Of a stretch of DNA of 64,000 nucleotides, positions 2,031 to 53,019 are shown piece by piece; the stretch's first letter is position 1, and the number at the start of each line of letters is the position of its first letter. Source of the DNA: a virus (lineage: Duplodnaviria > Caudoviricetes); the IMG/VR virus record IMGVR_UViG_3300042445_001485; one strand, written 5' to 3'. The notes under the pieces are model-generated. The model was not told where the DNA came from. It was given only the letters and a program-made list of their open reading frames with translations, and ran no database searches. The position numbers and the translations under genes are program-made.

Positions 2031-2036
2031 ACTTGT

Positions 2037-2065
2037 ATTATATACATACTTTATTTTATTGTCAA
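2037..2065 (-). promoter_or_regulatory. sigma70-type promoter of uvsE
   Basis: TTGACA (2065-2060), 17 nt spacer, TATAAT (2042-2037), then 6 nt (ACAAGT) to the ATG at 2030. Confidence 0.9.
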
Positions 2066-2499
2066 CTGTAGATCCACCCTAAATGTTCCTTTTGGTGTAA
2101 CCAAGTAAAAATAGGTACCGTAAATGCCAATTCCCATCTGCCATTCCATCCCAAATGGGTCGCACCCCGAAGTATTTGATCCAGACTACTTTGTGAGTCT
2201 GCCCAAGGTTGTGGATAGTTGGGTGTATATGTTCCAGACCATTTTAGCCTGTCAGTTGTGATTCCTTCTACCGAGACCGAATCTACAACAACCATCATGT
2301 CTGGGGTGTCGTTGGTTTTGTTGGCAAACTCAAAGAAGAACCTGTGTGCTGTTGTAGATAAGTCTAGACTAAAGTGTAGCGTTACCTCATTGTCGATGAA
2401 AATTTTATTACATACTTCATTGTCTATGCCATAGGTAATCTCGGGACGACCCACACCCCGTAATGTAACAGCAAAGCTAGTATTATACTTGGTATCCAT
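2062..2499 (-). CDS. Hypothetical protein
   Basis: 145-aa ORF coupled to the upstream radical SAM gene. Confidence 0.7.
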   Translation of the reverse strand: MDTKYNTSFAVTLRGVGRPEITYGIDNEVCNKIFIDNEVTLHFSLDLSTTAHRFFFEFANKTNDTPDMMVVVDSVSVEGITTDRLKWSGTYTPNYPQPWADSQSSLDQILRGATHLGWNGRWELAFTVPIFTWLHQKEHLGWIYS

Positions 2500-3775
2500 G
2501 CTCTAATAAAAATTCTCGGTACTCGGGATAAATCTCTCGAGCATCCAATTTGAACTCGTTGTCCCATCTGGCCAACCAATGTATCAACTGCTCTCGTAAT
2601 TCTACAACATTGTCAGGTTCAGGTGCAGACAACATATTGATAACGGTTTCTGTGTGTCTGGCCAACATTTGTTCTATGTTGGCTACATTTCTTCCTGTGG
2701 TAAGTCCAACACGATCCGGAACCAGTTCAGTTAACTGTGCAAGTAGTTCTGTATATTTGGGAATCAAACCAGTTCTAATTTCCAAAGGCAATACACAGAT
2801 TTGTAAATATTCTGGTTCAGTCAACGGAATGCTTTGAATTGCCAACTTGTTTTGTAACGCCCATCTAATCAATTCATCATAGTTGTTCACGCTCAACAAT
2901 TGTGGCACTGTACGCAATACAATATTAAAAGTGTCGCTTTGATGTTGAGTCAATTCTAAAATAGTTTGCTTTACATCCGCGGTAACAGATCCTTGCCTAA
3001 TGTAATGGTTGTTGTCTTTGACACTTTCTATGCTGATTTCAATATCGCATGATCTAAATTGTTTTAGTCTAGCGACTGCTTGATCGTACAACATTGTGCC
3101 ATTGCTTACAAAACTAATGCTGATATCTGTGCGCCCCTGTGCTATTAGAAAATCCAGTAGTTCAATGAATCGTTTACTGAGCATGGGTTCGCCACCCATG
3201 AAATGTAGTCTATTTAAATGCTTGGTTTCTAGTATGCTGGTCTTAAAAGATTCCCAGGCTTGATCGTCCGCAGTCCAATTACGATTGGCAGTCGCATCTA
3301 TTAGTTTCCATTTTTGATAAATGCTACTAATCTTACTGCTGGCTCTAGGATAGCACATCTTACAGGCCAGGTTACACTCATTGCCCAAGTCTATGTGCCA
3401 ATCAACAGGCTGTCGATCTGTTACAGTAGCAAATGCATCACGCATGGGACTTTGAATATAACTGCGTTCGAATGCCCGCTCTGTAAAGATTACAGTTTTA
3501 AAGTTTTCACGGATGCGTCGACTTTCGTGCCCGTGTGCTTCTTCTTTGTAACAGTCCCTACAACCATTGATGGGTTCTGCTCCTTGGATAGCCCGACGCT
3601 TGGCCTGCATGGGCACAGAGTTGTACCACTGACCCACTGTCATGTTTTTAATATTGTATTGTGCAGGATCTGTGTGTGGCTGTTCTCGTTCACTGCAACA
3701 CAGGCCAAAACTGCCGTCCCAATAGATATGTGTATTCGTCCAAGGAACGCTACAAAATATTCGCTGATCAGGCAT
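2483..3775 (-). CDS. Radical SAM protein with N-terminal Cys-rich (twitch/SPASM-like) region
   Basis: CNLACKMC (CxxxCxxC), GGEP, N-terminal CSVPW..CC..CRDC. Confidence 0.85.
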   Translation of the reverse strand: MPDQRIFCSVPWTNTHIYWDGSFGLCCSEREQPHTDPAQYNIKNMTVGQWYNSVPMQAKRRAIQGAEPINGCRDCYKEEAHGHESRRIRENFKTVIFTERAFERSYIQSPMRDAFATVTDRQPVDWHIDLGNECNLACKMCYPRASSKISSIYQKWKLIDATANRNWTADDQAWESFKTSILETKHLNRLHFMGGEPMLSKRFIELLDFLIAQGRTDISISFVSNGTMLYDQAVARLKQFRSCDIEISIESVKDNNHYIRQGSVTADVKQTILELTQHQSDTFNIVLRTVPQLLSVNNYDELIRWALQNKLAIQSIPLTEPEYLQICVLPLEIRTGLIPKYTELLAQLTELVPDRVGLTTGRNVANIEQMLARHTETVINMLSAPEPDNVVELREQLIHWLARWDNEFKLDAREIYPEYREFLLEHGYQV

Positions 3776-3776
3776 G

Positions 3777-5033
3777 TTACTCTATTATGCCAAAGTTAGC
3801 CCAGCGAGCTTGCCCTAAACTAACCCACCCAAGCGGGCCACCAATGCTGGGATTACTGTTGAACACAATTGATCCTTTTTCGGTATCGTTATTGGGTGGA
3901 GTAGGCGATGTGCTAATACTAGTTGTTCCTAGTTGTAGTCGTGGAATAGTCACAGATCCATCGGTGTTCAACAACAAGTTAGATTTACCATTGGTCCCGA
4001 TGACCAATAACTGGTCTCTATTAGACCATATCTGTGCTACCCCTTGTTGTCGTTTGCCAATGTTAATATCAATTTCTTCTTCCCATATAGTCAGAGCACT
4101 ACTTGGTTCCATTGTATTAACACCCACTCGTTTACTTCCAGTATACAAAGTATTATATATTAAGGTTTCACCACGAACCATAAGTTCATGTAACACGCCA
4201 ACTTTTTGTAAATTACTTTCTATTATAGCATTGTCTAGTCTGTTACCAACTACTAGATCAACACCGTTTAATTTTATTTGATTAAGATCAAGTCCGTTGG
4301 CATCTATTTCGTTATATAAATGCTTACTAAATTTTGTAAACAGTTCGTCGTTTAATTCTTCTTGTACTTGCTTTTTAGCGGCACTAACCACAGTGACAAA
4401 ACCCGGACTGGTTTCTACTATAGTTCCGTTTAAAGATAAATTACCTTCAAATATGGTATTACCTTTAACAATTAGATCTTTAGTTAATAAATTATTTTCA
4501 ATTACTGTGACATCATCCATGATGGTAACACGACAACCGGTTGCTTTGTCATCTATGCCTGTGCTACCAAACTCTGTAATGATGCCGCCTTTGACTGTAT
4601 CTCCGCTGATTGTACCTACTTGTTTAATTGCGGTACTGTTGATACTTTCGTTGGGGAATGTAAAATCTTTTAATTTACTGTCGATAATGGATGTTAATGC
4701 AGAAGCAATAGCTCCATTAAAATCTATACTGCTGATTCTAGCTGTTATTGCTTCATTAACCAATCTCGACGCGGTATTGGAGATATTATCTACAATGGCC
4801 TTTGTTGATGCGGCAAGTTGTTTATCAATTTCACCCAACTTTGGTTTATATTGTACCGCGGCAACTCGGGCCTCAGCCTTTGCGGCTTCATCCACCCGTG
4901 CGGCAACATTTATTGCATCAAGTTGTCTATTGATTGTATCTTGTAGACTGTTATTGACTTTAGCTGATACTTCTTTAAGTATCTGTTGCGAAAGATTGTC
5001 AACTAAGCCAGATAGTATATTGTTAGATTCCAT
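3777..5033 (-). CDS. Hypothetical protein, coiled-coil N-terminus and beta-repeat C-terminus (possibly virion)
   Basis: 418-aa ORF; RVGVNT..P..AL motif typical of phage fibre-like proteins. Confidence 0.55.
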   Translation of the reverse strand: MESNNILSGLVDNLSQQILKEVSAKVNNSLQDTINRQLDAINVAARVDEAAKAEARVAAVQYKPKLGEIDKQLAASTKAIVDNISNTASRLVNEAITARISSIDFNGAIASALTSIIDSKLKDFTFPNESINSTAIKQVGTISGDTVKGGIITEFGSTGIDDKATGCRVTIMDDVTVIENNLLTKDLIVKGNTIFEGNLSLNGTIVETSPGFVTVVSAAKKQVQEELNDELFTKFSKHLYNEIDANGLDLNQIKLNGVDLVVGNRLDNAIIESNLQKVGVLHELMVRGETLIYNTLYTGSKRVGVNTMEPSSALTIWEEEIDINIGKRQQGVAQIWSNRDQLLVIGTNGKSNLLLNTDGSVTIPRLQLGTTSISTSPTPPNNDTEKGSIVFNSNPSIGGPLGWVSLGQARWANFGIIE

Positions 5034-5766
5034 CGAATGTTATTGAAATTACATGCTCATAATTTCGCTTGACCAAGCTCTTGTACATAAGATTTTTATG
5101 AACTAAAAAGTTACTTGCTCCTGAGTCTAAGCTGAATTTGGCTAATTGTTTGAAATACATAGTTCTGCGACTAAAAGGTCCGTGTGTTGTTAACTCATTT
5201 ATAGATTGATCAATTTCGTATACTGCTGTTTTCCATGACGCACGATCTTTAAGGTCCCAATCGTGACTTTCTATGTAGGTAGTTTTAGACAGCCCCGATC
5301 TTACCAAAACTGGTTGACTGTATTCACGGTCTTTGTAGTCTTGATTTTTATAATCCTTTAAAGTACTTATTAAAAATTCTCGGGCCAGGCTACAAAATAA
5401 TTTAATTTGGTGTTGCTGTTCTGCATCCGATTGAGCAAATGTAAAATACTCATCTAGTGCCACCACAACATCAAATCCTTTTTGATATTTGTGTAGATCT
5501 ACATAATCTATGTATCTAAATTTAACTCCGCGGTCTGTCAATGATTTTTGCGCCTCGGAACTAATTTCAGTGACTGCAATATCGCCAACAGTGGATGCAA
5601 TAATAGCTGGATTGTATCCAACAAACAAAATTGAATCAGGTGCCAGATTGTAAAAATCGTACACTCCGATTATAATTTCGTTTTTCTTGTTTATAACATC
5701 TTGTGCATGAGAGTTGCGATTAAATGCAGATAAGATACTGTCTGTATAGCTGTCAAATTCGGTCAT
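5023..5766 (-). CDS. Hypothetical protein, possible degenerate SAM-dependent methyltransferase fold
   Basis: ILFVG and FDVVVALDEYF segments resemble class I methyltransferase motifs. Confidence 0.4.
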   Translation of the reverse strand: MTEFDSYTDSILSAFNRNSHAQDVINKKNEIIIGVYDFYNLAPDSILFVGYNPAIIASTVGDIAVTEISSEAQKSLTDRGVKFRYIDYVDLHKYQKGFDVVVALDEYFTFAQSDAEQQHQIKLFCSLAREFLISTLKDYKNQDYKDREYSQPVLVRSGLSKTTYIESHDWDLKDRASWKTAVYEIDQSINELTTHGPFSRRTMYFKQLAKFSLDSGASNFLVHKNLMYKSLVKRNYEHVISITFDGI

Positions 5767-5787
5767 AGTTTTATTCTAATAATGCTA

Positions 5788-8433: not shown

Positions 8434-8435
8434 CA

Positions 8436-10311: not shown

Positions 10312-10313
10312 TG

Positions 10314-11021: not shown

Positions 11022-11040
11022 TGAATATTTAGTGATAAGG

Positions 11041-12457: not shown

Positions 12458-12472
12458 CTTCAATAAGCCATA

Positions 12473-13910: not shown

Positions 13911-16007
13911 TTAAAAACGCATCATTCCCCGTATAAACCAATTGTTAGTGGCTATATCGTCTTTTTGCTGTCTACTTGCATACACACCAATCGATTGATC
14001 TCGTGCTGGACTAAAAGCAACTCCTACTTCGGTATTTCTATATCCGTTGCTGGTACTAGATACATCACCCGATACGGTAAACTCATCAATTGCTTTTGCT
14101 ACACGCACACCTGCTTCGGCATAACCTGTGGAATTATTAACACCATCTATAGTTCTAGCACTTTGTATATCGCCTGACTCAGTATAACCGTTTCTGCGTG
14201 AAGTACCAAAAGTGTAGCCCACATAAGGGCGTACTTCTGCGGATTCTACGGGCAAGGTTGGTACATATAATCTGTTGCTAATCCAGGTGTCTGTGCCATT
14301 GGTTGTGTATGCATTGTTGAACAATCCACCAACACTACGATTTGTGGCTATATTGTTTCTAGCATGACCCAAATTGGTTGCCAATATATGCCCGTCATCA
14401 AATGTATAGATGCTGTATAAACCTGCCGCAACTTTGCCTTGTGTGGTTGTGCTGTCAGTGCCGGTCATTGTGGTATTGAATTGACTGTATTGAGCACCAA
14501 CACGCCAATTTGGTTCAACTTTAACATCGCCACCAATGTTGTACATGTTGCTGGCAGCACCATAGCCGTCGCCCGCGCCAGTTGTTTGTCTACCACCGCG
14601 AATAAAGAAACTCTTTTGACCATCTTCGCTTTTGTAAACATCCATACGGAACGGATCCATGTTTAAACTGCGATTAATACCTGTGTTAAGGACGGACAAC
14701 TTGGCCTGTTGGTCAATACGACCACTGAAACTGTCATTGACCACTGCGGTATCCACATTGTTTTCTACCGTGACTATACTGGTAGGAGCCGCATCAGTGA
14801 ATGTAGTGGTACCATCACTCCATGTAGATGTGGTACGAACCCGAGTTGTCACTGTACGATCATATGGTGTTGTGGTATTTGTAGTTGTTTCTCTACCAAC
14901 AGTCTGTACTGTGGCAGTTTCACCCGGAGTATGATGCGCCAGGCTGGCAATGATGACCGGAAATGAGGTATTAATAGTTCGTGTGTCGGACACTGCAATG
15001 GTTGATGTTGCTGTGCTTACCACTGTAGGAGAACTACTACCGCCAGTTGCCGCCGCATCAGTTGCTGAACCAACATCAGTTAAAGTGCCGCCACCTGGAA
15101 CAGAGCCTGCCGTGCCGCCACCTGCACCTCCGGTTATGGCATAGTTAGCCGCGCCAAAAGCGTTTGGTCCGAATATGTAAGCATACTGAAAGTTAACTAT
15201 GTCACCAGGTGCTACATTGTTTACTAGAAAGCCAAGCCCGATTGTAACATCACCGCGACCGTAGTCTACGGTAACACCACCTGATGTGTATGGACTGTAC
15301 CCGTTGTAGTATATCACCGGGTTAGTGGTCCAATTGTTGGCGTCACCACCAATACCTGCGCCCACATTTGCGGCCGCACTATACAGGCCCAGGGCATAAC
15401 GACTGGTTGTGGCTTCAGCGAAGGCCACATTTGTGCGTGGGATGGCACCGTAGCCCAACACATTGTCTGTGGCACTGGTATCACCGGTCATGGGCATGGC
15501 GTCTGGATCAATGAAACGACCAAAGTACAATCTGCCTATAGCAACACTAGCGGTAATGCCGGTGTTGATGTTGATGTAGCGTTGACCGCTGGGTAAACTA
15601 TAGTTATTTGTGATGGTGAAGTCGCTAGTAGAGGCACTCCATATGGCACCGGCGGCTGTGGGTGTTCCAACCCAGGCGCCGGTTGTGATACTTCTAGCAC
15701 CATTATTGTTGTTTGTGTATGTACTAACTAGTGTTCCGCTACTGTCTTCTAAACGAACAGTAAAGCCTTCAAAAGGTGAACCGGGTGTTAGGTAGTCACC
15801 TTGACATGTATCGCACGGAAATGTACCGGTACCAGTGTTGTCGTACTGTAGACCGGGACGAGTACTACCACCTGAGCCCAAGGTACCAGTAGATAGGTTT
15901 ACACCTGCACGAACATATTCGTTTTCAATTATGACATTTTGTGATATGGCTGTGGTGGCCACGAAGACAGAGAAGGCCGCGAGGGCCTTCGAAAAATAAT
16001 AGCGCAT
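13911..16007 (-). CDS. Autotransporter beta-barrel domain protein
   Basis: Signal peptide, Thr/Gly-rich passenger, amphipathic beta-strand C-terminus ending in Phe; SD AAGGA. Confidence 0.75.
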   Translation of the reverse strand: MRYYFSKALAAFSVFVATTAISQNVIIENEYVRAGVNLSTGTLGSGGSTRPGLQYDNTGTGTFPCDTCQGDYLTPGSPFEGFTVRLEDSSGTLVSTYTNNNNGARSITTGAWVGTPTAAGAIWSASTSDFTITNNYSLPSGQRYININTGITASVAIGRLYFGRFIDPDAMPMTGDTSATDNVLGYGAIPRTNVAFAEATTSRYALGLYSAAANVGAGIGGDANNWTTNPVIYYNGYSPYTSGGVTVDYGRGDVTIGLGFLVNNVAPGDIVNFQYAYIFGPNAFGAANYAITGGAGGGTAGSVPGGGTLTDVGSATDAAATGGSSSPTVVSTATSTIAVSDTRTINTSFPVIIASLAHHTPGETATVQTVGRETTTNTTTPYDRTVTTRVRTTSTWSDGTTTFTDAAPTSIVTVENNVDTAVVNDSFSGRIDQQAKLSVLNTGINRSLNMDPFRMDVYKSEDGQKSFFIRGGRQTTGAGDGYGAASNMYNIGGDVKVEPNWRVGAQYSQFNTTMTGTDSTTTQGKVAAGLYSIYTFDDGHILATNLGHARNNIATNRSVGGLFNNAYTTNGTDTWISNRLYVPTLPVESAEVRPYVGYTFGTSRRNGYTESGDIQSARTIDGVNNSTGYAEAGVRVAKAIDEFTVSGDVSSTSNGYRNTEVGVAFSPARDQSIGVYASRQQKDDIATNNWFIRGMMRF

Positions 16008-17547: not shown

Positions 17548-17853
17548 TTAGATACTTATTCTTTGTATAATTTCTTGGTAAAAAGTGTCTACTTCTCCGC
17601 CAAACTTACCAATTATGTGCGGAAAAAGATCGTTACAGATCTTGTAGTCTTTGATGTTATAAGCATCAACAAATGCTTGATGTAACTTGCAGTTGTGATC
17701 AAGTTGTGGTAATTCTGACAAGTTAATTCGATCCGCGGGAATAACACAATATGCATCTAAAGTTATGCCATCTTTCACAATGGTTTCTAACTCCAACACA
17801 GTATGTTGTTTTCGTAATTCTTCTGCTACCACACGACTAAAAATTATTTGCAT
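17548..17853 (-). CDS. Hypothetical protein
   Basis: 101-aa ORF coupled to the upstream gene. Confidence 0.65.
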   Translation of the reverse strand: MQIIFSRVVAEELRKQHTVLELETIVKDGITLDAYCVIPADRINLSELPQLDHNCKLHQAFVDAYNIKDYKICNDLFPHIIGKFGGEVDTFYQEIIQRISI

Positions 17854-18383
17854 TATTGTTTTTGTATCCCTAGTTTATTATATACCTGTTGTACCGCAGT
17901 GGCTTGGCTAACACAGTCTTCCAAGGCATTGTGTAGTCCTGCTTTGCCTTTGACTCTTGGATCTCCGTGTACTCCAAATAGTGTACGACTGTCACGGATT
18001 TGCCAGTATTGCCAAGGAGTAGGCCACCCCATCTGTCTATACAAGTTTTCCAATATAGCAAAATCGAACAAAGGACCTTGAGCCCAAATATTGTTGGCGC
18101 CTACTAGAAATCTATTTAAGTCTCGATACAGGGTATCTAAACTAACACGCTCGTTTTCGCCCAGGGCTTCTTCACGGATGTCATCGGCCTGGCTAATCCA
18201 CCAAGCAAGAGTGTCTTCTTGCACTTCGCGACCCAGTGCTGTTTGTTCATCTACATCCACACGAAAGTAAATACCTGGTCCCGGGTCACTTAATGTATAA
18301 GGGTCAAACTTAATTGCACCCAGAGTAAGTATGACGCAATCTGGGCGAGTTCCTAGTGTTTCTAAATCAAGCATGATGTCCAT
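17853..18383 (-). CDS. DEDDh 3'-5' exoribonuclease (Rv2179c-like)
   Basis: MLDLETLG, FDFAIL, RDSRTL and HNALEDC motifs. Confidence 0.85.
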   Translation of the reverse strand: MDIMLDLETLGTRPDCVILTLGAIKFDPYTLSDPGPGIYFRVDVDEQTALGREVQEDTLAWWISQADDIREEALGENERVSLDTLYRDLNRFLVGANNIWAQGPLFDFAILENLYRQMGWPTPWQYWQIRDSRTLFGVHGDPRVKGKAGLHNALEDCVSQATAVQQVYNKLGIQKQ

Positions 18384-18389
18384 ACTTGT

Positions 18390-18418
18390 ATTATATGCTA
18401 TTATTTACTTTGTGTCAA
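18390..18418 (-). promoter_or_regulatory. sigma70-type promoter of the exoribonuclease gene
   Basis: TTGACA, 17 nt, TATAAT, then ACAAGT-ATG (same 6 nt as the uvsE promoter). Confidence 0.9.
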
Positions 18419-19774: not shown

Positions 19775-20014
19775 TTAATACAACTTTTTTGGTAATTCTT
19801 GGTCACGCAACTTTTTACGCCAACGGGCCTGTGCCGCACCTCGTTTGCGTTTGCGTTCGGTTGTGGGTTTTTCAAAATGTTGGCGTTCTTTTATTTCTTC
19901 AAGTAGTCCCGACTCTTGGATTTTTTTCTTGAATTTGCGTAGAGCTTTATCCACTTGATCATTTTGAACAATTACGCTACATCCGCGAATTGGTTTTGGT
20001 TTGTAATATGACAT
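19775..20014 (-). CDS. rpsU: 30S ribosomal protein bS21
   Basis: V.V.N..VDKALRKFKKK..ESG...E...R.HFEKPTTERKRK pattern. Confidence 0.9.
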   Translation of the reverse strand: MSYYKPKPIRGCSVIVQNDQVDKALRKFKKKIQESGLLEEIKERQHFEKPTTERKRKRGAAQARWRKKLRDQELPKKLY

Positions 20015-20025
20015 GTACTATTTAC

Positions 20026-21516
20026 TTAAATTTTACCTTGTTGTTGATTTTTTAAATATTCAGCTATTTGGGTTTGTTCTGTTTCACTGAGCTCGTCCGG
20101 ATCGTACTCGCCCGAAGCAATTTTATCTACCAGATGTTTGATATATGCTTCATTAAATACGTAGTTATCTGTTAGTGATTTATCACTTTCAACCCACTTG
20201 GACCCATTCCATTTGAACAATTTACTGGGTAGATAATCTGTACGCAAAAACATGTCACCCTTGTTTGGCTTCAACGGAAACGATGTTCCGAAGTCAGCAT
20301 TTGATGCGTTGCCTAAACTGGGATGATTATCTGCTAGGGCACTTAATTCTGGAAACTGTTGTTTAAACGAGTCAATGCTATAACTACGGCCGTTATGCAT
20401 TAAATGATCGCTGTTTGTTAAAAATACCAAGTTATCGTCGGGTGGTAGCGGTTCATCTAATGCCGCAACTTCCGCTTCAGTAAAAGGTCTAGTTTCAACA
20501 GCGGAAATCTCCCCAGGGGCGAGTATAGCCATTGCGGCCGCATCTTCGTGTATGGCATGTGTGCTGGGTGGGGGTGGCGCCACCATGGGCATAAGATTCT
20601 TAAAATGTTCAAATGGCCGTTTTAAATATGCCAAAGGGTCAAACTTAGTTTGAGGTTCATCGGGCTCGTTCTGAGCTATGGGCTCAGCGACTTCCGGCGC
20701 TGTTGGTGCCTCTACCGTTGGTTCATCTAAAATTGATCCCGATTCTTTCTTGTCTCGTTCTTCTTGGGCCCACTTGATGCTTTGTTGTGCGGCTAGTATT
20801 AATACCAGTGCCAAGGGATCAAACACCAGCACAATAATAATGATCACCAGCCTGACAGCTCGTTCTAATACATTCTGATCAGGATTGTCGCCATACACCA
20901 GGGCCGCTATGTATTTTATAGGACCGACTTCTGATTCGATCTTCCTGTTCTCTGCGGCGAGAGGTGCCCGGTCTTCATTAAGTTGACTAATTTTTTTCTG
21001 TTCGGCCTCGATCTCGGCTTGTAAACGGGTTCGCTCTTTTTGCTGAGATCTGCGTATAGAGACTGCTTTATCGGCACCCTTTTCATCTGAGCTTCGGCCC
21101 ATGACTTGATCCACTGCCTCATCATACTGTTTAAGAACTTTGCGGTTAGCATCGATATTGTCCCTTGCTATTTTGATTTTTTCATCGTATATGGCTACCC
21201 GGGCCATTGAATCACCTGATACTAAACTTTGATCACTGTGTGCTTTACTCAGGAATCCAAAGATGCCCATGCTTGTTAACAGCATTAAGAATGCCACAGC
21301 CGGAACAAGATAAAACTTGTACAACAGGCTGGCTCGTTCCCAATACATCTTTAGCCAAATAGCCGCAGTGACTTTGCCAACTTCTAGGCTGGCACCCATG
21401 ATCATGATGGGGATCACAGCGGCTGAGAAAATGGCAGTTAGGCCTATAATACTGTAGTAGGCCGCAATGGCACTGATGATCAGTGCAACGATTAGAGTGA
21501 AGTATCCAAATATCAT
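20026..21516 (-). CDS. Membrane protein with coiled coil and acidic/Pro-rich tail
   Basis: N-terminal TM helices, coiled coil, IILVFDPLA TM segment; preceded by both a sigma70 (TTGACA-17-TATACT) and an exact TATAAATA box. Confidence 0.7.
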   Translation of the reverse strand: MIFGYFTLIVALIISAIAAYYSIIGLTAIFSAAVIPIMIMGASLEVGKVTAAIWLKMYWERASLLYKFYLVPAVAFLMLLTSMGIFGFLSKAHSDQSLVSGDSMARVAIYDEKIKIARDNIDANRKVLKQYDEAVDQVMGRSSDEKGADKAVSIRRSQQKERTRLQAEIEAEQKKISQLNEDRAPLAAENRKIESEVGPIKYIAALVYGDNPDQNVLERAVRLVIIIIVLVFDPLALVLILAAQQSIKWAQEERDKKESGSILDEPTVEAPTAPEVAEPIAQNEPDEPQTKFDPLAYLKRPFEHFKNLMPMVAPPPPSTHAIHEDAAAMAILAPGEISAVETRPFTEAEVAALDEPLPPDDNLVFLTNSDHLMHNGRSYSIDSFKQQFPELSALADNHPSLGNASNADFGTSFPLKPNKGDMFLRTDYLPSKLFKWNGSKWVESDKSLTDNYVFNEAYIKHLVDKIASGEYDPDELSETEQTQIAEYLKNQQQGKI

Positions 21517-23842: not shown

Positions 23843-24223
23843 TTAGGTGATTAAAATATGTTTCTGGTTGGCTCGGTCGCTGTACAACTGGTTGCCACGC
23901 TCACGAATCATGTCGGCCGCTGTCTGCGGTGTGGACTCAAACAGGTCACGCAAATCTTGTTGAGTAATACCACGGTCTGTTGTTACTGTATAAATTTCGT
24001 AATGTCGCTGTGGGTTTTTTCGGGCTCGCATGATCATCATACCAACCATTTGGTTGACTTTTACCAGGTGTTCATTGCGTGGTACTGTGTCTGGATCGCG
24101 GATTATGTCGAACAGTTTTTCTTGTTCAAATGTTTCTGAGCGATCACGGTCTTGTGTAATGTCAACACAGGCTTCAAGTCCGGTGTTGTCCCAACTAAGA
24201 ATAAAAAGATTTTGTTTCTTCAT
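23843..24223 (-). CDS. Hypothetical early protein
   Basis: Start MKKQNL placed 6 nt after a TTGACT-17-TACAAT promoter (24258-24230). Confidence 0.7.
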   Translation of the reverse strand: MKKQNLFILSWDNTGLEACVDITQDRDRSETFEQEKLFDIIRDPDTVPRNEHLVKVNQMVGMMIMRARKNPQRHYEIYTVTTDRGITQQDLRDLFESTPQTAADMIRERGNQLYSDRANQKHILIT

Positions 24224-24250
24224 AGTGCTATTGTACAATAGATGCCATTG

Positions 24251-24649
24251 TTAGTCAATGGCTCTACGGAACACAATTTCCTGTCGTGCAAAGGCTTCTT
24301 GTTCCCAGGGTTGATCCAAATACGGAGTGCGTCTTGAGTAGAACTTGCCACACCATTTTTTACCTCGTGGTGTTATCTTTAATATACCTTTGGCCATTTG
24401 ACGCACATGCACCAATTCATGTGCAAGTGTTACTCCCAATTCCAGGCAATTGCGTTTGGGCTTTAACACAACCAAAACGGTATCTATGCCTGTCATTGGC
24501 ACTGTGGTGCCGTGGTCTTTGAGATCACGATCTACTTTAATCATTAAAAATTTACGGCTACTGTCCAACCCAAGTTGGGTCAGCATACTGGGCAGTACCG
24601 CTTCAATAAATCGTCGAGTCTTGGGGCCTGCTTCAACATGGAATTCCAT
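24251..24649 (-). CDS. HEXXH metallopeptidase-like protein
   Basis: TLAHELVHVRQ ... PWEQEA motif. Confidence 0.65.
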   Translation of the reverse strand: MEFHVEAGPKTRRFIEAVLPSMLTQLGLDSSRKFLMIKVDRDLKDHGTTVPMTGIDTVLVVLKPKRNCLELGVTLAHELVHVRQMAKGILKITPRGKKWCGKFYSRRTPYLDQPWEQEAFARQEIVFRRAID

Positions 24650-24659: not shown

Positions 24660-24986
24660 TTAGTGGCTGTTCAGAGCAGGATTAAATTCGGCAATCAATT
24701 CACGCTCACGAGCATGAGCAGGCTTGCGTCCACGCACAAACTCCACAATGCCGTAAGTGTGAGCCAATGTGCCGTATTCGCGAATTGACTTACACAAAGC
24801 CCAATCTTTGTTTTCTGTAACTGCACGGCGTACATGTTTCTGCATACGCACTTTTAGAGCTTTACGAACTTGTTGTCCGCAAACTGTAATACCAATGTAT
24901 TGTTGGCCTGTTGTTGTATTGGTAATACAGTAAACGACATGCTTGGTATCTTGGCGTCTTTTTCGGGGTTGCTTTTTAAGTTCCAT
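24660..24986 (-). CDS. GIY-YIG nuclease family protein
   Basis: VVYCITNTTTGQQYIGIT, R..H, ERELI...LN; TTGTCC-17-TATAAT promoter 6 nt upstream of the ATG. Confidence 0.8.
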   Translation of the reverse strand: MELKKQPRKRRQDTKHVVYCITNTTTGQQYIGITVCGQQVRKALKVRMQKHVRRAVTENKDWALCKSIREYGTLAHTYGIVEFVRGRKPAHARERELIAEFNPALNSH

Positions 24987-25031
24987 ACAAGTATTATAGC
25001 AATGATTCCTTTTTCGGACAAATTTCGGCCA

Positions 25032-25108
25032 TAAAAAAAGTACTACAAAAGTAGTACTTTTTGAGCCCTAAAAGTAGTACTTTTTATGTAGTACTTTAGT
25101 ATTACTTT
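25032..25108. repeat. GTAGTACTTT repeat cluster including a terminator hairpin
   Basis: Copies at 25051, 25074 and 25088, variant at 25099, inverted copy at 25037; 12-bp hairpin 25035-25062 with a T-run on the minus strand. Confidence 0.8.
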
Positions 25109-25335
25109 TAGTGCAGAGTTGCGTCATTGTCAATGTCGTCTATGTCCCTGACCCCAAATATTTTCAATATTCTTTGTACACTTTTAGGTGCAGTAAAGGA
25201 TCCAGTTTCGGGTAACAATACGCTTTTTAATTTGCCATCGGGGCTAATAATAAAAGCATAGTCCTCGTCTGCCCAATCTACTTCATTAAGAAATTCGTCA
25301 ATTTCTTCTTCCGACTCTCGCGTGACCTTGGACAT
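25108..25335 (-). CDS. Small acidic hypothetical protein
   Basis: 75-aa ORF with SD AAGGAGG. Confidence 0.7.
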   Translation of the reverse strand: MSKVTRESEEEIDEFLNEVDWADEDYAFIISPDGKLKSVLLPETGSFTAPKSVQRILKIFGVRDIDDIDNDATLH

Positions 25336-34737: not shown

Positions 34738-35448
34738 TTAGTTTGTTCGGTAATACTGCTCTACCCTCTTGGTCCACTCGTTGGTCCAGTGATCAAATTC
34801 GTCACCTTCAATAACAAATTCCAAGTATTCCGGCGTGGAATATGTCTGATCTGGCTGTAATCGAGGCTGTACTGCCATCAAAATTATCCCGGTATTGATT
34901 TCAGTGCTGTGTGTGGCATTGTGTGCCTGTGCATAGGCCGCCAACTGTACAAAATAATCATCAATATATTCACGCTTTTTAACTTTGTTGCTTTGTTTAA
35001 AGTCCATGATAGCAGGCCGACCCTTCCACAGACCCACACAGTCTGTAGTGCCGGCATATAACCCACTATAATACACAGGAACTTCATTGCCCCAGAATTC
35101 ATCCACATGACACAATCCGTTTAGTATGACTTCAGCGGCCATGTACCAACTTGCGTGTGCAAATGGATTTGTAGGCAAGGGTTTCATATCATCATTGAGT
35201 ATAAATGATTCAAGATAACTATGCATTCTAGTTCCGCGGTTGGCAGCTTCTGTGGTAATGGCCTGTGCTCTATCATGCCCAATGGCGTCGCGCCATTTTT
35301 GTAGTGCTTGTCTTGACTCTTCGCTTTTGGTTCGATCTAAGATGGTGGTAACACTGGGTACTGCACTACCATCGGGCAAACAGTAGTGTCGTTTGCCATC
35401 AATGGTTGTTCTTGATATTGGAGTATAGTTGTAAGGTGATTTGATCAT
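34738..35448 (-). CDS. PD-(D/E)XK exonuclease (Cas4/RecB-like)
   Basis: PSVTTIL, RGTRMH, YAGTTD, IMDFKQS, QLAAY; start placed 7 nt after a TTGACT-17-TATAAT promoter (35484-35456). Confidence 0.85.
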   Translation of the reverse strand: MIKSPYNYTPISRTTIDGKRHYCLPDGSAVPSVTTILDRTKSEESRQALQKWRDAIGHDRAQAITTEAANRGTRMHSYLESFILNDDMKPLPTNPFAHASWYMAAEVILNGLCHVDEFWGNEVPVYYSGLYAGTTDCVGLWKGRPAIMDFKQSNKVKKREYIDDYFVQLAAYAQAHNATHSTEINTGIILMAVQPRLQPDQTYSTPEYLEFVIEGDEFDHWTNEWTKRVEQYYRTN

Positions 35449-35495
35449 AATTTGTATTATAACATCTACTTCGTACTTAGTCAATAAATATCAGC

Positions 35496-36221
35496 ATGAA
35501 TATACTAATAAGTGGGTGTAGTTTTAGTCAATGGCCCGATCAACCCGGAGGCAAAAATATTTGTTGGCCTGCGTACATACAGGGACATCAAGTCAAAACG
35601 GTGGCCGAGGCAGCCGCGGGCAATCAATATATTTGCGACAGTGTCATACGAGAAGTACTGGAAGAGACGCCAGACATGGTATTGGTCATGTGGAGTGGGG
35701 TCAGCAGACTTGATTACTTAACCAGTTTAGAAGACTCTGCCTGGGACAGTCTGTTTGACAGCTATGGTTTCTACCGCAGGCTCCCCGGTAACAAATTGGG
35801 TTGGATCTTCAGTGGTGGACAAATGGGCACCTGGTTCAAACATCCAGTGGCACATAAAATGTTTTATGAAATGTACAAAGTGTCAAGTGAACTTAGTCTG
35901 GCACATATCAACTTGACAGAAATTGTAAAATTACAAAACTTCTTAAAAGCCAAGAGCATTCCTTATCGTTTCATGAGTTATGTAAACTACTGGGGAACTG
36001 GTGGTAATATTAGCCCCAATGGAGACTTTGGTGTTGATCGGTTTCCTGAGTTGAGATACTTAGTCAACGAGATTGATTTTACCCAATGGATATTTACAAA
36101 TACCAATAAAGATGGCATTTATGAAATGGCAAAAGAAACAAATGATTTTATGCCCGACGGATTCCACCCCGGCACAGCAACACATCAAAGCTGGGCTGAT
36201 TTAATTATGTCTTGTATTTGA
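35496..36221 (+). CDS. SGNH/GDSL-hydrolase-like hypothetical protein
   Basis: ISGCSFS, AGNQYI, DGFHP motifs; TAAATA box 5 nt upstream. Confidence 0.55.
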   Translation: MNILISGCSFSQWPDQPGGKNICWPAYIQGHQVKTVAEAAAGNQYICDSVIREVLEETPDMVLVMWSGVSRLDYLTSLEDSAWDSLFDSYGFYRRLPGNKLGWIFSGGQMGTWFKHPVAHKMFYEMYKVSSELSLAHINLTEIVKLQNFLKAKSIPYRFMSYVNYWGTGGNISPNGDFGVDRFPELRYLVNEIDFTQWIFTNTNKDGIYEMAKETNDFMPDGFHPGTATHQSWADLIMSCI

Positions 36222-42174: not shown

Positions 42175-42627
42175 TTATCTTAGCAAGCCGGGCTTGAATG
42201 CAATGTTCTTGATAGCACCGTGGCTGTAAAATATAGGTAGTATAAATCTAGCTGTTTCATCTAGGCCTGTGATCACCGGTACTTGATTAAAATCTTCTTC
42301 TAATAGTGCCAACTGATCTTCATCTTTTTTATAAACATCTCTATGTTCAATGCTAAACCCCACAGCCCATATACGCTGTTCGCCTGAGTACATGTCCCCA
42401 AACAAATTTTTAACAACAAACTCTTCAACTGTGTCTGTGATGGGACCATCAGTAACAGTGGGCTGAGCCCTTATACCTAACACCTGTAATACTGTTTCCC
42501 AGTTACGCTGTTGATCACGAAGATGCTCTTCGCCGGTGTAGTTGCGAGTTATACCAGTCCTGGTAATATCAACCAGTGTAATTATTGTAAAGTGTTCTAG
42601 GTTGCTCATGCTATTACTTATGGCCAT
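42175..42627 (-). CDS. Hypothetical protein (start possibly 42609)
   Basis: ITLVDIT.TG ... QQRNWETVLQVLGIRAQP. Confidence 0.7.
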   Translation of the reverse strand: MAISNSMSNLEHFTIITLVDITRTGITRNYTGEEHLRDQQRNWETVLQVLGIRAQPTVTDGPITDTVEEFVVKNLFGDMYSGEQRIWAVGFSIEHRDVYKKDEDQLALLEEDFNQVPVITGLDETARFILPIFYSHGAIKNIAFKPGLLR

Positions 42628-42653
42628 AAAAAAAGCACAGTCGAAACTGTGCT
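42628..42653 (-). terminator. Intrinsic terminator with UUCG tetraloop
   Basis: AGCACAGT-TTCG-ACTGTGCT followed by a T-run on the minus strand. Confidence 0.9.
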
Positions 42654-42676
42654 CTTTTCGTTGAGTTAATTAAAAA

Positions 42677-43048
42677 TTAACCAAAAGTTGCGCCACTTAG
42701 GCCGCTGTAAATAGTCCATGTAGATGTCAAACCATTGGCTGCATCTGCGTCAGTTGCTAGTTTACTAGCAATTGCTGTACCACCACTTTGGTCTGCTGAG
42801 CTATCACCAACTTTAGTTGGCAAACCTTCAACCATGAATACACAGTTATCAGCGGCTGGAGTACCAACTACTGTAATTGTGCAATACTTGGCCAACACAT
42901 TAACTGCCTTTTCAAAGTTGCTGCCTGCTGCCGCATAAGCGGTATGTATACCTGTTGCCGCACATTTTACGAATTTGATATCGCGTCCAACAAATTCACC
43001 GCCTGCGCCGCCAACTGCCCAACCGTTTGTTCTTGTAAATTCTGCCAT
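42677..43048 (-). CDS. Small late virion-like protein, MAEFTRTNG paralog 1
   Basis: Ala/Gly/Thr-rich; own late promoter, strong SD and terminator. Confidence 0.65.
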   Translation of the reverse strand: MAEFTRTNGWAVGGAGGEFVGRDIKFVKCAATGIHTAYAAAGSNFEKAVNVLAKYCTITVVGTPAADNCVFMVEGLPTKVGDSSADQSGGTAIASKLATDADAANGLTSTWTIYSGLSGATFG

Positions 43049-43113
43049 TTTATTTTTCCTTTAAAATATATGGGCTATTCGCCTCATGTAAATATTTATC
43101 ATTTAGACAAAAA
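43023..43113. repeat. Direct repeat copy 1 (promoter + leader + first codons)
   Basis: About 91 bp, near-identical to 43558-43648 (offset 535). Confidence 0.95.
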
Positions 43114-43135
43114 AAGCCCGCTTCATTGCGGGCTT
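43109..43135 (-). terminator. Intrinsic terminator
   Basis: AAGCCCGC-6 nt-GCGGGCTT followed by a T-run on the minus strand. Confidence 0.9.
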
Positions 43136-43157
43136 GTCTTTATGCCAAAAACAACTA

Positions 43158-43583
43158 TTAGGCTAGTTTGATACCGCCAGTTGATGAAACTGTTGCGGCG
43201 CCAACCCAGGTGTTAGCTAGTTTGCCGATGTTACCAGCACCATCACCAGCTGTAGTAGCACGAATGTTGGCTTGCAGGAACGTATCTGTCCAACTTGAAC
43301 GCTCAACAATCACGCTCAACTGTTGATTAGAGTCTGTTTGGTATGCCAAGATCGATGCCTGACCAGCAACGATGCGTAAGATTGTCTCAACTGCACCGCC
43401 GGTTGTTAATTCTGCTGCCAAGTTGCCTGCGCCGCCGCCTGTTGGGATGATACCGGCAATTTTGTATGCTGTGATTGGAGACCCAATGCCTGTGTTGATG
43501 ATGGTTGCGTTGGCGAAAGCACGGCCGCCGCCTACATTGTTAACACCAGCTGAATCGCCGTTTGTTCTTGTAAATTCTGCCAT
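43158..43583 (-). CDS. Small late virion-like protein, MAEFTRTNG paralog 2
   Basis: Same N-terminus and upstream cassette as 42677-43048. Confidence 0.65.
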   Translation of the reverse strand: MAEFTRTNGDSAGVNNVGGGRAFANATIINTGIGSPITAYKIAGIIPTGGGAGNLAAELTTGGAVETILRIVAGQASILAYQTDSNQQLSVIVERSSWTDTFLQANIRATTAGDGAGNIGKLANTWVGAATVSSTGGIKLA

Positions 43584-43648
43584 TTTGTTTTTCCTTTAAG
43601 ATATATGGGCGTATAGCCTCATGTAAATATTTATCATTTAGACAAAAA
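43558..43648. repeat. Direct repeat copy 2
   Basis: Matches 43023-43113 apart from a few substitutions, mostly in the hairpin loop. Confidence 0.95.
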
Positions 43649-43661
43649 CTATCCGTTACCG

Positions 43662-49322: not shown

Positions 49323-49382
49323 GATTTACTCCAATTTAGTATATTTAGTTGTTGTTTTAATTATGAGTATTTCAGTTTACCA

Positions 49383-50507
49383 TTAAATATACTTGCCTGA
49401 TATAGCAAACTTACTGTAAAACTCTGCAACTTCGGGAAATACCTTGGTCCAGTCTTGATTCCTTAGTGTATCAAACTTGTGTATTTCTTCTAGCATTTTC
49501 TTTATACCTCTGGAACTTTCGTTAAATTCCGGTCTAAGCATCTTTTTAAAATTTGAATCAATTGATCTAATATACTCGTTGGATAGATTATGTATTCCAA
49601 ATATGCCTTCTGCCATGTGTCTAGTGTGATTTACAGCATCACCCAATCTATTGATTTTAAAGTTCTGCTCAATCCAGGTGGCCAATTCCTGTTGATAATA
49701 CAAATTAAAAATACTAACTGTTTCTTCTATTAAAAACATAACATTAACTGGTAAGTTTTGATTCGATTGCAATACGTTGTTGGTTACTTGATTCCAATCG
49801 GCGGGCCAACGCAAATAGTTAAATCTTTCTTTAATGCCGTCAAGACTAATGTGTAGTTTAACCAAATGAAACTTTTCAATAATACTGTAATATTCTTTAT
49901 CAATAGTTTGTGTGCCATTGGTTTGAAAACTAACTGTTAGTTTTTCCTTGGCGTTGGGCACAAGTCTTGCTAGTTCTTCGGCAACTTGCCAGTAGCTGTT
50001 GCCCAGTAGAGTTTCGCCACCACAAAAAACAACTAACCCAAGGTTTGAAAGATCTAGTGTTCTTAATAAATCAATCATGTCATCCACACGACTAACAGGA
50101 CGAGGTGCGGTAAATGCTATTTTGTGTTCTTTAAGATGTCGTTGCCAGTAGGTGCTTAACTGTGGTCCACATGTCCTACAGGCCAGGTTGCAACCAATAT
50201 CAAACATAAGGTCAAGTCTAACCGGTCCGGACAAGTTGGTCTGCACACCGAATTGTTCAAGCGTGCCTGTACGCAGACTGGGTGTATTGACTTTTTCATT
50301 TGCTTGACAAGTCCAACAGGCACTATCCCAAATATTTTGATTGTTCTTTTCTCGAAGTTTAGTAAACTGCTGATTGTTCCACAGATCGTCAGTGACTTCA
50401 ATCATGTCTGGTCGAAGACAGCACTGATTTACAAAAACCTTATTGTGATCTTTTTTTAAGTTTATCTGTAGACCGCCATGAATCATGGGGCAATGTATAT
50501 TGCTCAT
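49383..50507 (-). CDS. Radical SAM protein with N-terminal Cys-rich region
   Basis: CNLACRTC, GGET, N-terminal CP..CC..CWTC. Confidence 0.85.
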   Translation of the reverse strand: MSNIHCPMIHGGLQINLKKDHNKVFVNQCCLRPDMIEVTDDLWNNQQFTKLREKNNQNIWDSACWTCQANEKVNTPSLRTGTLEQFGVQTNLSGPVRLDLMFDIGCNLACRTCGPQLSTYWQRHLKEHKIAFTAPRPVSRVDDMIDLLRTLDLSNLGLVVFCGGETLLGNSYWQVAEELARLVPNAKEKLTVSFQTNGTQTIDKEYYSIIEKFHLVKLHISLDGIKERFNYLRWPADWNQVTNNVLQSNQNLPVNVMFLIEETVSIFNLYYQQELATWIEQNFKINRLGDAVNHTRHMAEGIFGIHNLSNEYIRSIDSNFKKMLRPEFNESSRGIKKMLEEIHKFDTLRNQDWTKVFPEVAEFYSKFAISGKYI

Positions 50508-51931
50508 TCTGCTTTCTTGAGTCCTGCCAACATGCTCTTGAGTCTATTGCTGTTGACTTCTCCGGTGGCCTTGGGAGCCTGTTCCCACGCAGGGGTTCCA
50601 GTAGCACGCTCAAAACTAGTTTCTTCTGCGGACTCTGCAACCTTGCTTTTTATTTGACTCATGATACTGGAAACTTTAGCAGGTCCACCCGAATCGTTGG
50701 CATCAAGTCCAGGATCTGTGATACGCATGGATTCAATGTTGTATTCAAGATCAATCTTTTGTCCAACACCGGTACTACTACGCGACTTCATACACTGAAT
50801 TTGATAACGACCACGCTCACGCATTTGCCTGCTGGTAAAGATACCAAACACATTGTCTGCTGTGTTGATCTTACTAATACCACCAGCAATGTGGCTATGG
50901 TCAAATTCCACTTCTTCAACAGCACTACGATTCAACTGACTGGCTGTGACCAGTAATACGCCCAGTTCTTTGGCCAAGTTACGCAATTCTTCTGCCACAT
51001 ATTTGTCTTTGATAAACTGATCATTGGGGTTGACCTTGACACTCACAGGCATGACCAAGTCCAGATAGTCTACCATAACAAAGTCTACTCGAATCCCGGT
51101 CTGTATCTGCACTTCTTTCAAGTAACTGCGAATGTCGTTCACTGTGCTCTGCGCCGGCAGGGCCTTGACACGATACTGTCCGGCTTTTTTACTGACCAGG
51201 CGCACTTTCATTGTGGTTGTGTCAATGTCCTTGCGAATTTCTTTGGTACCTGTGCCAGTCAACATGGCATCTGTACGTAGACTTGTAAGTTCTTCACTCA
51301 GTTCCAGTGTGATGTAAACTCCGCTGAGTCCGGCCTGCAACCAACTCAGCGCAATGTTCATCATCACAAGGCTCTTGCCCGAACCCGATCCGCCAGCAAA
51401 GATGTTGAGTTCACCCCTACTAAAACCGCCATACAACAATCTATCTAATTGCGGCCATCCTGTTGAGACCTGCCCGCCCGAGTTGAAGTATCGGTCAATG
51501 CGAGCCTTAGGATCAGCAAAGTAATCCGTACCCATGTCTTTGGTGAGTGATATCTGTACTGCGTCTTTGATAAGTTTTTCAACTGGGTCATATTCGCCCT
51601 TTTCCAGCAAGTCTGCTGATTTTAAAATTGCTCGCTCTAGTTCTTGTCTACGGGTAAAACTTTCAAACTCGGTCATGAACCATTCATAGTGGCCTTCATT
51701 TAGTTCAGGTACCGGTTTCAAGTCCACACCTGTGGTGGCTTTTATTTGCTCGTATGTGGGTAGAGTTTTGTGATCTTCACTATGCTTTTTAAGAAACTCT
51801 GCCACTGCTCGCAGACTACGATCAAAGTTTTCAGGATTGTAAATGTTCTGCACCCGCACATAACTAGTGGCATCCTGCAACATCATTTCTAAAAACAACT
51901 GCTGTAGTTCTCTTGTGTATTCTTTGTTCAT
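50504..51931 (-). CDS. Replicative helicase (T4 gp41/DnaB-like)
   Basis: Walker A GGSGSGKS, ITLEL, VDYLD, TASQLNR, KSRSS. Confidence 0.93.
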   Translation of the reverse strand: MNKEYTRELQQLFLEMMLQDATSYVRVQNIYNPENFDRSLRAVAEFLKKHSEDHKTLPTYEQIKATTGVDLKPVPELNEGHYEWFMTEFESFTRRQELERAILKSADLLEKGEYDPVEKLIKDAVQISLTKDMGTDYFADPKARIDRYFNSGGQVSTGWPQLDRLLYGGFSRGELNIFAGGSGSGKSLVMMNIALSWLQAGLSGVYITLELSEELTSLRTDAMLTGTGTKEIRKDIDTTTMKVRLVSKKAGQYRVKALPAQSTVNDIRSYLKEVQIQTGIRVDFVMVDYLDLVMPVSVKVNPNDQFIKDKYVAEELRNLAKELGVLLVTASQLNRSAVEEVEFDHSHIAGGISKINTADNVFGIFTSRQMRERGRYQIQCMKSRSSTGVGQKIDLEYNIESMRITDPGLDANDSGGPAKVSSIMSQIKSKVAESAEETSFERATGTPAWEQAPKATGEVNSNRLKSMLAGLKKAE

Positions 51932-52974
51932 AAGTTAGTATTTAATTTTTTCTTTAGTAGTTCAATTTTTAAGCGACTCGTTTGCTTGGCCTCCAGGATA
52001 CTTTTCAACACAAACAGTCTACCATAGGCCACAACTGCTGAGTTGACATCTTTGTGTGTTTCTTGCCATATGGGATAACTCACACTCCAACCATACTCAA
52101 TGGCCGCATCAATCAACTTGATACCTGCACGGTCCACATCAGGTACCACAATAACTTCTCGTCCCAGGCTGTCAATGATGTCGGCCTGCACTTCACTACA
52201 TTCATTACTTAACACAGCAATACCATCAATGGCCATGGCATCAAACGGACCTTCCACAACGATAACAAATTTACTAGTGGGCCGTTGTCTATCCACATTG
52301 AACACATAGTTGCCTTCATAACTGTTGTGATACTTGGGTCGGACATCATCTTGTGTGGCACGGGCAGTATATCCAATGATCTTGTTCTGCCAAGTACAGG
52401 GCACAATTACTCGCCGATCTAAATTGTACTGGCGCTCAGGAGTCCAATAAAAATCATATTTACTTAGATCAATAGCCCTGGCCGCTGGATATAACACGGC
52501 ATTGTGAAACGACGCAGGTACATTGGTGACCGCAGGATTATCTGCACTCAATGTATGAAACATTTCCCAGGCATGAAGTGTCTGTGCTTCCTCAGGCAAG
52601 GACCTGGCCTTAAAGACGACTTCTTCTCGGACTACTTCCGCCGTCTCAGGCTCTACCAGTTCCTTGATACGGATGGCATCTATGACCAATCGCTTGATGG
52701 TATTTTCATCAGCACCCAGCCAACTCAGGAGCTTTCTAAACTTGTAGTTTAGGTGGCGTCCTGGTGTGTAGTTGGTGGTGTAATTGCAGTTAAAACAACT
52801 ATAACTAATGCTACCTGTAGGATTGGTAATAATGCCGCCTCTGCCTCGAGAGTCCGAGGACTCCCCACGGTGATGACAGCAGACGGCATTAAAACTGGTC
52901 CACCCTGATACCGAATTGGTCTTTCGCCGAACCGGAAGCAATGAGTTTACTGTGTCAAGAATCGAGTTTAGCAT
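51928..52974 (-). CDS. DNA primase (T4 gp61-like)
   Basis: Zn ribbon CCHH..CFNC, TOPRIM EGPFDA and DVD, KDVN; TTGACC-17-TATAAT promoter 6 nt upstream of the ATG. Confidence 0.88.
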   Translation of the reverse strand: MLNSILDTVNSLLPVRRKTNSVSGWTSFNAVCCHHRGESSDSRGRGGIITNPTGSISYSCFNCNYTTNYTPGRHLNYKFRKLLSWLGADENTIKRLVIDAIRIKELVEPETAEVVREEVVFKARSLPEEAQTLHAWEMFHTLSADNPAVTNVPASFHNAVLYPAARAIDLSKYDFYWTPERQYNLDRRVIVPCTWQNKIIGYTARATQDDVRPKYHNSYEGNYVFNVDRQRPTSKFVIVVEGPFDAMAIDGIAVLSNECSEVQADIIDSLGREVIVVPDVDRAGIKLIDAAIEYGWSVSYPIWQETHKDVNSAVVAYGRLFVLKSILEAKQTSRLKIELLKKKLNTNL

Positions 52975-53019
52975 CCTACTATTATATAGGAAAATTTGGA
53001 CAAGGTCAATTAAATTGAA

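Follow-up and report, generated by a model that had tools for sequence, protein, structure and literature searches.

Host-type promoters abut the start codons of six genes in a jumbo phage related to T4-type phages and are predicted to generate leaderless mRNAs

The DNA under study is a 64,000-nucleotide (nt) stretch from a virus of the Caudoviricetes (IMG/VR record IMGVR_UViG_3300042445_001485), referred to here as the window, and the features in question are promoters that directly abut the start codons of six of its genes. The window is about 42% G+C, and nearly all of its genes are on the minus strand. An earlier note on this DNA had pointed to six sites at which a sigma70-type promoter runs into a start codon, and all six were found on the minus strand where it had placed them: a -35 box, a 17-nt spacer, a -10 box and 6 to 7 nt are followed by the ATG of a long open reading frame (ORF), a layout that we refer to as fused (Table 1). 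The -35 boxes are TTGACA and TTGACT (two sites each), TTGACC and TTGTCC (one each), and the -10 box is TATAAT at five sites and TACAAT at the sixth. Five of the gaps between the -10 box and the ATG are 6 nt in length, and that of the exonuclease site (35484-35456) is 7 nt. ATG is the start codon in every case, and no Shine-Dalgarno (SD) sequence of 4 nt or longer was detected in the six upstream regions, just as the note had observed. The UvdE and exoribonuclease sites are identical from the -10 box through the ATG (TATAATACAAGTATG, 15 nt), a match that had also been remarked upon and that is common to these two sites only; the spacers of the six promoters are unrelated. At four of the sites the preceding gene ends 17-45 nt before the ATG, and some promoter bases are shared with the upstream stop codon, the TGA of the gene preceding UvdE falling within the -35 box.

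Table 1. Positions of the fused promoters and of other features discussed in the text (positions are those of the window; gaps are the nucleotides between the -10 box and the ATG).
Feature	Position	Strand	Details
UvdE promoter	2028..2065	-	-35 TTGACA 2065-2060, 17 nt, -10 TATAAT 2042-2037, gap ACAAGT, ATG 2030-2028; gene 987-2030
Rv2179c-like 3'-5' exoribonuclease promoter	18381..18418	-	TTGACA, 17 nt, TATAAT 18395-18390, gap ACAAGT, ATG 18383; gene 17853-18383
126-aa gene promoter	24221..24258	-	TTGACT, 17 nt, TACAAT 24235-24230, gap AGCACT, ATG 24223; gene 23843-24223
GIY-YIG promoter	24984..25021	-	TTGTCC, 17 nt, TATAAT 24998-24993, gap ACTTGT, ATG 24986; gene 24660-24986
Exonuclease promoter	35446..35484	-	TTGACT, 17 nt, TATAAT 35461-35456, 7-nt gap ACAAATT, ATG 35448; gene 34738-35448
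Primase promoter	52972..53009	-	TTGACC, 17 nt, TATAAT 52986-52981, gap AGTAGG, ATG 52974; gene 51928-52974
Perfect 12-bp hairpin, then U run	25035..25062	-	directly upstream of GIY-YIG promoter; -20.3 kcal/mol, z -4.9, 0/200 shuffles
TAAATA-abutted ATGs	51931, 38990, 21516, 20014, 19188, 11760, 11021	-
TAAATA-abutted ATG	35496	+
bS21 gene (PF01165)	gene 19775-20014; element 20012..20024	-	TAAATA 4 nt before ATG 20014, no SD
TAAATA, 5 nt, ATG 35496	35485..35498	+	241-aa ORF, no family match; back to back with exonuclease -35 box

The gene names given earlier (uvsE, exoribonuclease, GIY-YIG, exonuclease and primase) held in family searches. UvdE is a UV endonuclease (PF03851, E 4e-29) with the conserved motif RIGFACKW from residue 7 and no in-frame ATG in between; the exoribonuclease aligns to PF16473 beginning at residue 2; the exonuclease matches phrog_298 (E 5e-52); the primase is of the DnaG/Toprim type; the GIY-YIG protein is GIY-YIG homing-endonuclease-like; and the 126-amino acid (aa) protein has no family match. 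Orthologs of all six genes begin at the same ATG. For the exoribonuclease and exonuclease, relatives that lack the promoter use this same ATG directly after, or overlapping, the preceding stop codon, and thus the start is fixed independently of the promoter. The Pfam and ortholog alignments, together with these coupled orthologs, indicate that the start codons of the six genes are correctly assigned. Alternative TTG starts at 35484 and 24238, called by the ORF finder, were rejected, as they lie inside the -35 box and the spacer, respectively, and the orthologs use the ATG.

The frequency of the fused layout was compared to that expected by chance. At a threshold of 10/12 hexamer matches, 25 promoter sites were detected on the coding strand, six of which had an ORF-opening ATG 6-7 nt after the -10 box compared to about 0.12 expected; the opposite strand had 15 sites at this threshold and none was fused. 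A histogram of the -10-to-ATG distance (d), which the earlier note had proposed to set against shuffled controls, was compiled over 76 curated gene starts and revealed five promoters at d=6, one at d=7, one at d=16 and none at any other distance from 0 to 21. When the 76 upstream 60-mers were shuffled 2000 times with dinucleotide composition preserved, fused sites averaged 0.107 per shuffle with a maximum of three. The spacing is thus more peaked than in shuffled sequence, as 0/2000 shuffles reached the six observed.

Conservation of the layout was surveyed among IMG/VR relatives of each gene by reading the 55 nt before each ortholog ATG and counting distinct upstream sequences. A fused promoter was found before 53 of 56 distinct primase orthologs (55-95% aa identity), with the -35/17/-10 boxes at 6-8 nt from the start codon and with a spacer and flanks that have diverged. 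All 57 distinct GIY-YIG orthologs have the promoter, the first ATG following the -10 box by 6 nt (once 5 nt) and standing in a tandem ATGATG in 20 cases, and the 126-aa gene keeps the layout in 5/5 orthologs. For the exoribonuclease, a consensus promoter was present in 22/58 orthologs (21 at 6 nt and one at 5 nt), and in most of the promoter-less orthologs the ATG comes after or overlaps the upstream stop with no SD. The UvdE promoter lies 5-7 nt from the ATG in about 26-29 of 61 orthologs, and its spacer is often 16 nt long. A fused promoter was present in 8/59 wild exonuclease orthologs (up to 10 if weaker -35 boxes are included), most of the other exonuclease genes lying directly behind another gene. 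Among these orthologs, the UvdE, exoribonuclease and exonuclease promoters are present when the gene heads a transcription unit, vary with operon structure and, when present, are welded to the ATG. Among promoter-bearing orthologs the spacing was nearly always 5-8 nt and mainly 6 nt. The same tendency was observed in a wider sample of 1.45 Mb of related loci, in which 82 of 175 distinct strong promoters (at least 11/12 matches) had an ORF-opening ATG at d=5-8, with 55 of these at d=6; three scrambled-motif controls run on the same loci gave no ORF-opening ATG at d=5-8. After removal of the orthologs of four query genes, 14 of 39 promoters remained at d=5-8, in nine protein families.

Based on these results, we rejected the view that the six sites are chance matches in AT-rich intergenic DNA, the likelihood of which we consider negligible. 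A simple promoter scan did find weak promoter-like sites to be about as common in the window as in shuffled sequence (58 vs 51.8), as this view would have it; the strong, fixed-spacing sites are by contrast far above the shuffled mean, are missing from the opposite strand and are kept in dozens of diverged orthologs, and it is these shuffle statistics and the conservation of the primase, GIY-YIG and 126-aa orthologs that led to its rejection.

The position of the ATG relative to the -10 box coincides with the position at which transcription would be expected to start. Bacterial RNA polymerase (RNAP) initiates at positions 6, 7 and 8 after the -10 box in 8%, 55% and 29% of cases, respectively, and favors a purine as the first base (+1) with a pyrimidine in front of it (the Y(-1)/R(+1) rule) (PMC5730371). 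The A of the start codon is therefore position 7 where the gap is 6 nt (position 8 where it is 7 nt), and the statement of the earlier note that sigma70 starts about 7 nt past the -10 box agrees with this modal start of 7 bp. Among 114 distinct d=6 promoters of the relatives, position -1 was a pyrimidine in 104 and an A in one, compared to 59% pyrimidine and 25/70 A at the non-fused gene starts of the window (Fisher p = 2.5e-7), although many of the sites are orthologous and the sequences are not fully independent. The spread of spacings, in which 6 nt is far commoner than 5, 7 or 8 nt, is likewise centered on position 7. The pyrimidine at -1 fits this rule for transcripts that begin with the A of the start codon.

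An alternative is that transcription does not start at the ATG, either due to a phage-modified RNAP or some other choice of start that gives a short leader or a start within the codon, or because the boxes are recombination or regulatory cassettes. T4-type phages modify the host RNAP. Among these phages, promoter-early stem-loop (PeSL) cassettes are known shuffling units with a 3' end that consists of an SD and a start codon (Arbiol et al. 2010, PMC2839356). Furthermore, the spacing is not universal, as the exonuclease genes of Xanthomonas phage XbC2, Serratia phage BF and E. coli phage BF17 have a TATAAT box followed by 13 nt with a GGAG and then the ATG. The distribution of spacings centered on the modal sigma70 start speaks against this alternative, as does the fact that the stretch from the -10 box to the ATG offers no SD for a short leader. 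Similar to PeSLs, the six sites have strong sigma70-like early promoters in short intergenic spaces, and the GIY-YIG site has a stem-loop upstream; however, PeSLs are near-identical repeats that carry an SD, whereas the six sites have unrelated spacers and are SD-less, and thus the six promoters are neither repeated cassettes nor PeSLs. We regard a start elsewhere than at the ATG as improbable.

Taken together, the best explanation of the six sites, and one that we consider probable, is that the promoters start transcription on the A of the ATG and give leaderless mRNAs that are translated with no need for SD pairing. In this model, the six sites would function as promoters of the host type (sigma70 family) in a freshwater jumbo phage that is related to PA5oct and to phages of the T4 type. 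The host sigma70 holoenzyme would start on the A of each ATG, and the resulting 5'-pppAUG mRNA would have no 5' untranslated region (UTR) or ribosome-binding site, which would oblige the first gene to use the leaderless pathway. Ribosome and initiator tRNA would bind the 5'-terminal AUG directly at the first gene of the unit, and the downstream genes would be started by stop/start overlap or by their own SD. Leaderless mRNAs are independent of SD pairing and of protein S1, and favor 70S ribosomes. We infer that the promoters are active, that transcription begins with the A and that the leaderless mRNA is translated, be it by 70S ribosomes or by 30S with IF2; 70S initiation at the six genes, as put forward in the earlier note, is conjectural. 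The central claim of that note, leaderless mRNAs, is supported by the geometry, the lack of SD, the fixed starts and a layout that is conserved while the spacer drifts; the further claims that leaderless initiation is the regime of this phage and is particular to a gene class did not stand, as described below.

Several points weigh against this interpretation. The transcription start is predicted from sequence, the base at +2 is a T and not the G that is preferred just downstream of the start (PMC5730371), and the ortholog counts are non-independent events. In P. aeruginosa PAO1, 55 leaderless transcripts were found among 2187 mapped transcription start sites, and leaderless genes have been detected in few proteobacterial genomes (PMC3160421); it is uncertain how efficient leaderless translation would be if the host is a proteobacterium of this kind. 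Given the short distance to the upstream gene at four of the sites, read-through transcripts could also serve for the translation of several of the genes. Contigs of public assemblies that encode the exoribonuclease, primase, GIY-YIG and 126-aa proteins span the promoters, and one of these begins 14 nt before the ATG; an RNA or DNA origin of the contigs being indistinguishable, they speak neither for nor against a start at the ATG.

In a second alternative, real promoters initiate at or close to the ATG and the first gene is poorly translated as a leaderless mRNA, such that the promoters mainly boost the downstream genes and the first gene is made chiefly from read-through with re-initiation after the upstream stop. 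Many relatives without the promoter start the same genes by stop/start overlap or abutment, and thus coupling is a working alternative; in addition, 34/76 genes of the window overlap the gene before them or lie at most 5 nt away from it, and the upstream gene is near at four of the six sites as noted above. Yet conservation of a spacing of exactly 6 nt and of a pyrimidine at -1 would be unnecessary if only the downstream genes mattered. Leaderless translation requires ATG, and six of the six starts are ATG. The GIY-YIG unit is also preceded by a 121-nt gap and by a terminator-like hairpin (25035-25062) that, with its U run, lies just before the -35 box and makes read-through into this gene unlikely. 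Among the six sites, stem-loop folding was evaluated at the GIY-YIG upstream region. The hairpin was not called by a simple terminator scan; it looks like a terminator in its stem and U run, and as such would leave the GIY-YIG promoter as the only source of transcript. Poor leaderless translation of the first gene is, in our judgment, unlikely, although less so than a start elsewhere.

The same hairpin contains AGTACT and is part of an AGTACT-rich repeat patch (25022-25109) that resembles the PeSL stem-loop. Words of the type 'agtact' also occur upstream of the promoters of many GIY-YIG orthologs.

Cultured relatives of the phage were examined for the same layout. The jumbo phages with the replication proteins closest to those of the window (31-48% identity) are PA5oct, Atu_ph07 and Phosso, and no near-identical phage DNA was found in the phage collection. 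The PA5oct exonuclease (EST35_0240), with 42% identity in an alignment that starts from residue 1, is preceded by TTGACA/17/TATAAT and 7 nt before the annotated ATG at 158242, a geometry equal to that of the window exonuclease site. The PA5oct primase has a perfect TTGACA/17/TATAAT (MK797984.1 145855-145892); here, by contrast to the window primase, the start would be on GTG. Its annotated GTG comes directly after the -10 box, with a second GTG in frame 6 nt further on (145890). The annotated GTG is upstream of the predicted +1, and the later GTG would be the likelier start if the promoter is used. These two sites are in keeping with the 32 promoters described for PA5oct, which have TTGAC and TATAATA motifs around transcription start sites (Lood et al. 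2020, PMC7318152); the word 'leaderless' is absent from the text of that paper. In addition to the longer spacing of the XbC2, BF and BF17 exonuclease genes, the Atu_ph07 primase was found to have a leader of about 28 nt with AAGG, and thus the fused form is common to the lake clade and PA5oct and not to all jumbo relatives. Transcription from position 7 in XbC2, BF and BF17 would begin inside the GGAG or immediately after it and leave a very short leader.

As PA5oct is a Pseudomonas phage, the layout occurs in a phage of a proteobacterium, and the earlier statement that leaderless starts are unusual if the host is a proteobacterium was overstated. A host search with the bS21 protein of the phage gave a single match (53%), to a contig of a Chitinophagales metagenome-assembled genome, which says little about the host. 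The only hints of a Gram-negative (diderm) host are an autotransporter beta-domain (PF03797) in a 698-aa protein encoded at 13911-16007 on the minus strand and the fact that the cultured relatives infect proteobacteria.

The leaderless design is not the only mode of initiation in the window. An SD of at least 5 nt (match to AAGGAGG, core AAGGAG, centered at -12/-13) was found before 20/76 genes (26% vs a background of 4%). Of nine strong gene-facing sigma70-type promoters, six are fused and three have leaders of 16-29 nt. Most of the replication genes in the window (helicase, RNR and others) are operon-internal and start by stop/start coupling or an SD. A second promoter motif was TAAATA, which resembles the TATA box of T4 late promoters, an element that is located at -10, roughly one helical turn ahead of the start (PMC2988020; PMC7892883). 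Eight genes, seven on the minus strand and one on the plus strand, have TAAATA at a distance of 4-7 nt from the ATG, and for about ten others the distance is 18-23 nt; this bimodal spacing suggests that late-type promoters may also give leaderless or near-leaderless mRNAs. With SD sequences and coupling also in use, the leaderless design is one of three initiation modes, and it is not restricted to early promoters or to repair and replication genes. Thus, the view that leaderless initiation is the regime of the phage was not sustained, and neither was the view that it is systematic for early repair and replication genes, as the GIY-YIG and 126-aa genes are included and most replication genes are coupled or SD-led.

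Among the TAAATA-associated genes is that of ribosomal protein bS21, which has HSP20, ClpS and CTP_transf_like genes as neighbors. In 10/10 bS21 orthologs examined, TAAATA was 4-7 nt before the ATG with no SD, and in ClpS orthologs the proximity of TAAATA to the ATG was not conserved. It is possible that the fused design serves compaction, gives independence of SD and S1 during take-over of the host or is linked to bS21, each of these reasons being conjecture. A broader proposal is that leaderless initiation is a clade-wide selected regime of T4-related jumbo phages of Gram-negative bacteria, which would span both sigma70 and TAAATA promoters and be tied to a phage bS21 that remodels host ribosomes toward SD-less or leaderless mRNAs; we view this proposal as doubtful.

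Other arrangements were observed near gene starts of the window. The gene at 21516 has a perfect TATAAATA at 7 nt from its ATG as well as a sigma70-type promoter at 29 nt. A divergent control region of 47 bp (35449-35495) separates the exonuclease ATG from the plus-strand ATG and has no room for a 5' UTR on either side. At 42627-42660 (minus strand), a GC-containing hairpin followed by T7 is terminator-like and runs into the ATG of a 150-aa gene at 42627, which has no SD and no recognizable promoter between the hairpin and the ATG. Two paralogous genes (123 and 141 aa) have near-identical upstream sequences of about 50 nt (43048-43100 and 43583-43635, minus strand), each with a promoter-like TTTACA/16/TATATT and an AAGGA SD, and are among the few with strong promoters that leave a leader.

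Leaderless initiation is a known mechanism. In the E. coli phage lambda, the cI mRNA made from PRM is reportedly the classic leaderless case (as attributed to Shean and Gottesman in 1992). Both there and in the window a sigma70 promoter would start on the A of the AUG, in lambda within a proteobacterial phage and in the window by prediction; lambda, however, has this in one regulatory gene, whereas the window phage has it in at least six genes per 64 kb with conservation across a large clade. Thermus phage phiYS40 is likewise said to provide a phage precedent for leaderless genes (work ascribed to Sevostyanova and colleagues in 2007). Leaderless genes in which the -10 box lies next to the ORF are well known from Deinococcus-Thermus and Actinobacteria (Zheng et al. 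2011, PMC3160421; PMC12340547). These share with the six window genes a -10 box that ends 6-7 nt upstream of the ATG, the lack of an SD and an mRNA predicted to have the start codon at its 5' end. By contrast, the promoters of the window phage have the complete consensus -35/17/-10 arrangement, the phage is one of a T4-related jumbo group with cultured members on Gram-negative proteobacteria, and its leaderless starts are at the first genes of only some units, with SD-led genes (26%) coexisting. No leaderless transcript has been reported for phiKZ, and no description of the layout in which promoter and ATG are fused was found in the literature searched on jumbo phages, T4-like phages and cyanophages. 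Thus, the mechanism itself is established, and the literature searched gave no account of T4-related jumbo phages using it in a conserved manner.

If the 5' ends are confirmed, abundant aquatic jumbo phages, as well as PA5oct, a candidate for therapy, would express key early enzymes without ribosome-binding sites, and the enzymes concerned would include the primase, exonuclease, UV endonuclease and exoribonuclease. Gene callers that expect an SD misplace such starts, as illustrated by the PA5oct primase, with its annotated start upstream of the predicted +1. PA5oct infecting PAO1 would provide a tractable model. As leaderless mRNAs need no pairing with an SD and no S1, the design may be of relevance to host take-over, and the finding of fused promoters bears on the question of why phages encode bS21.

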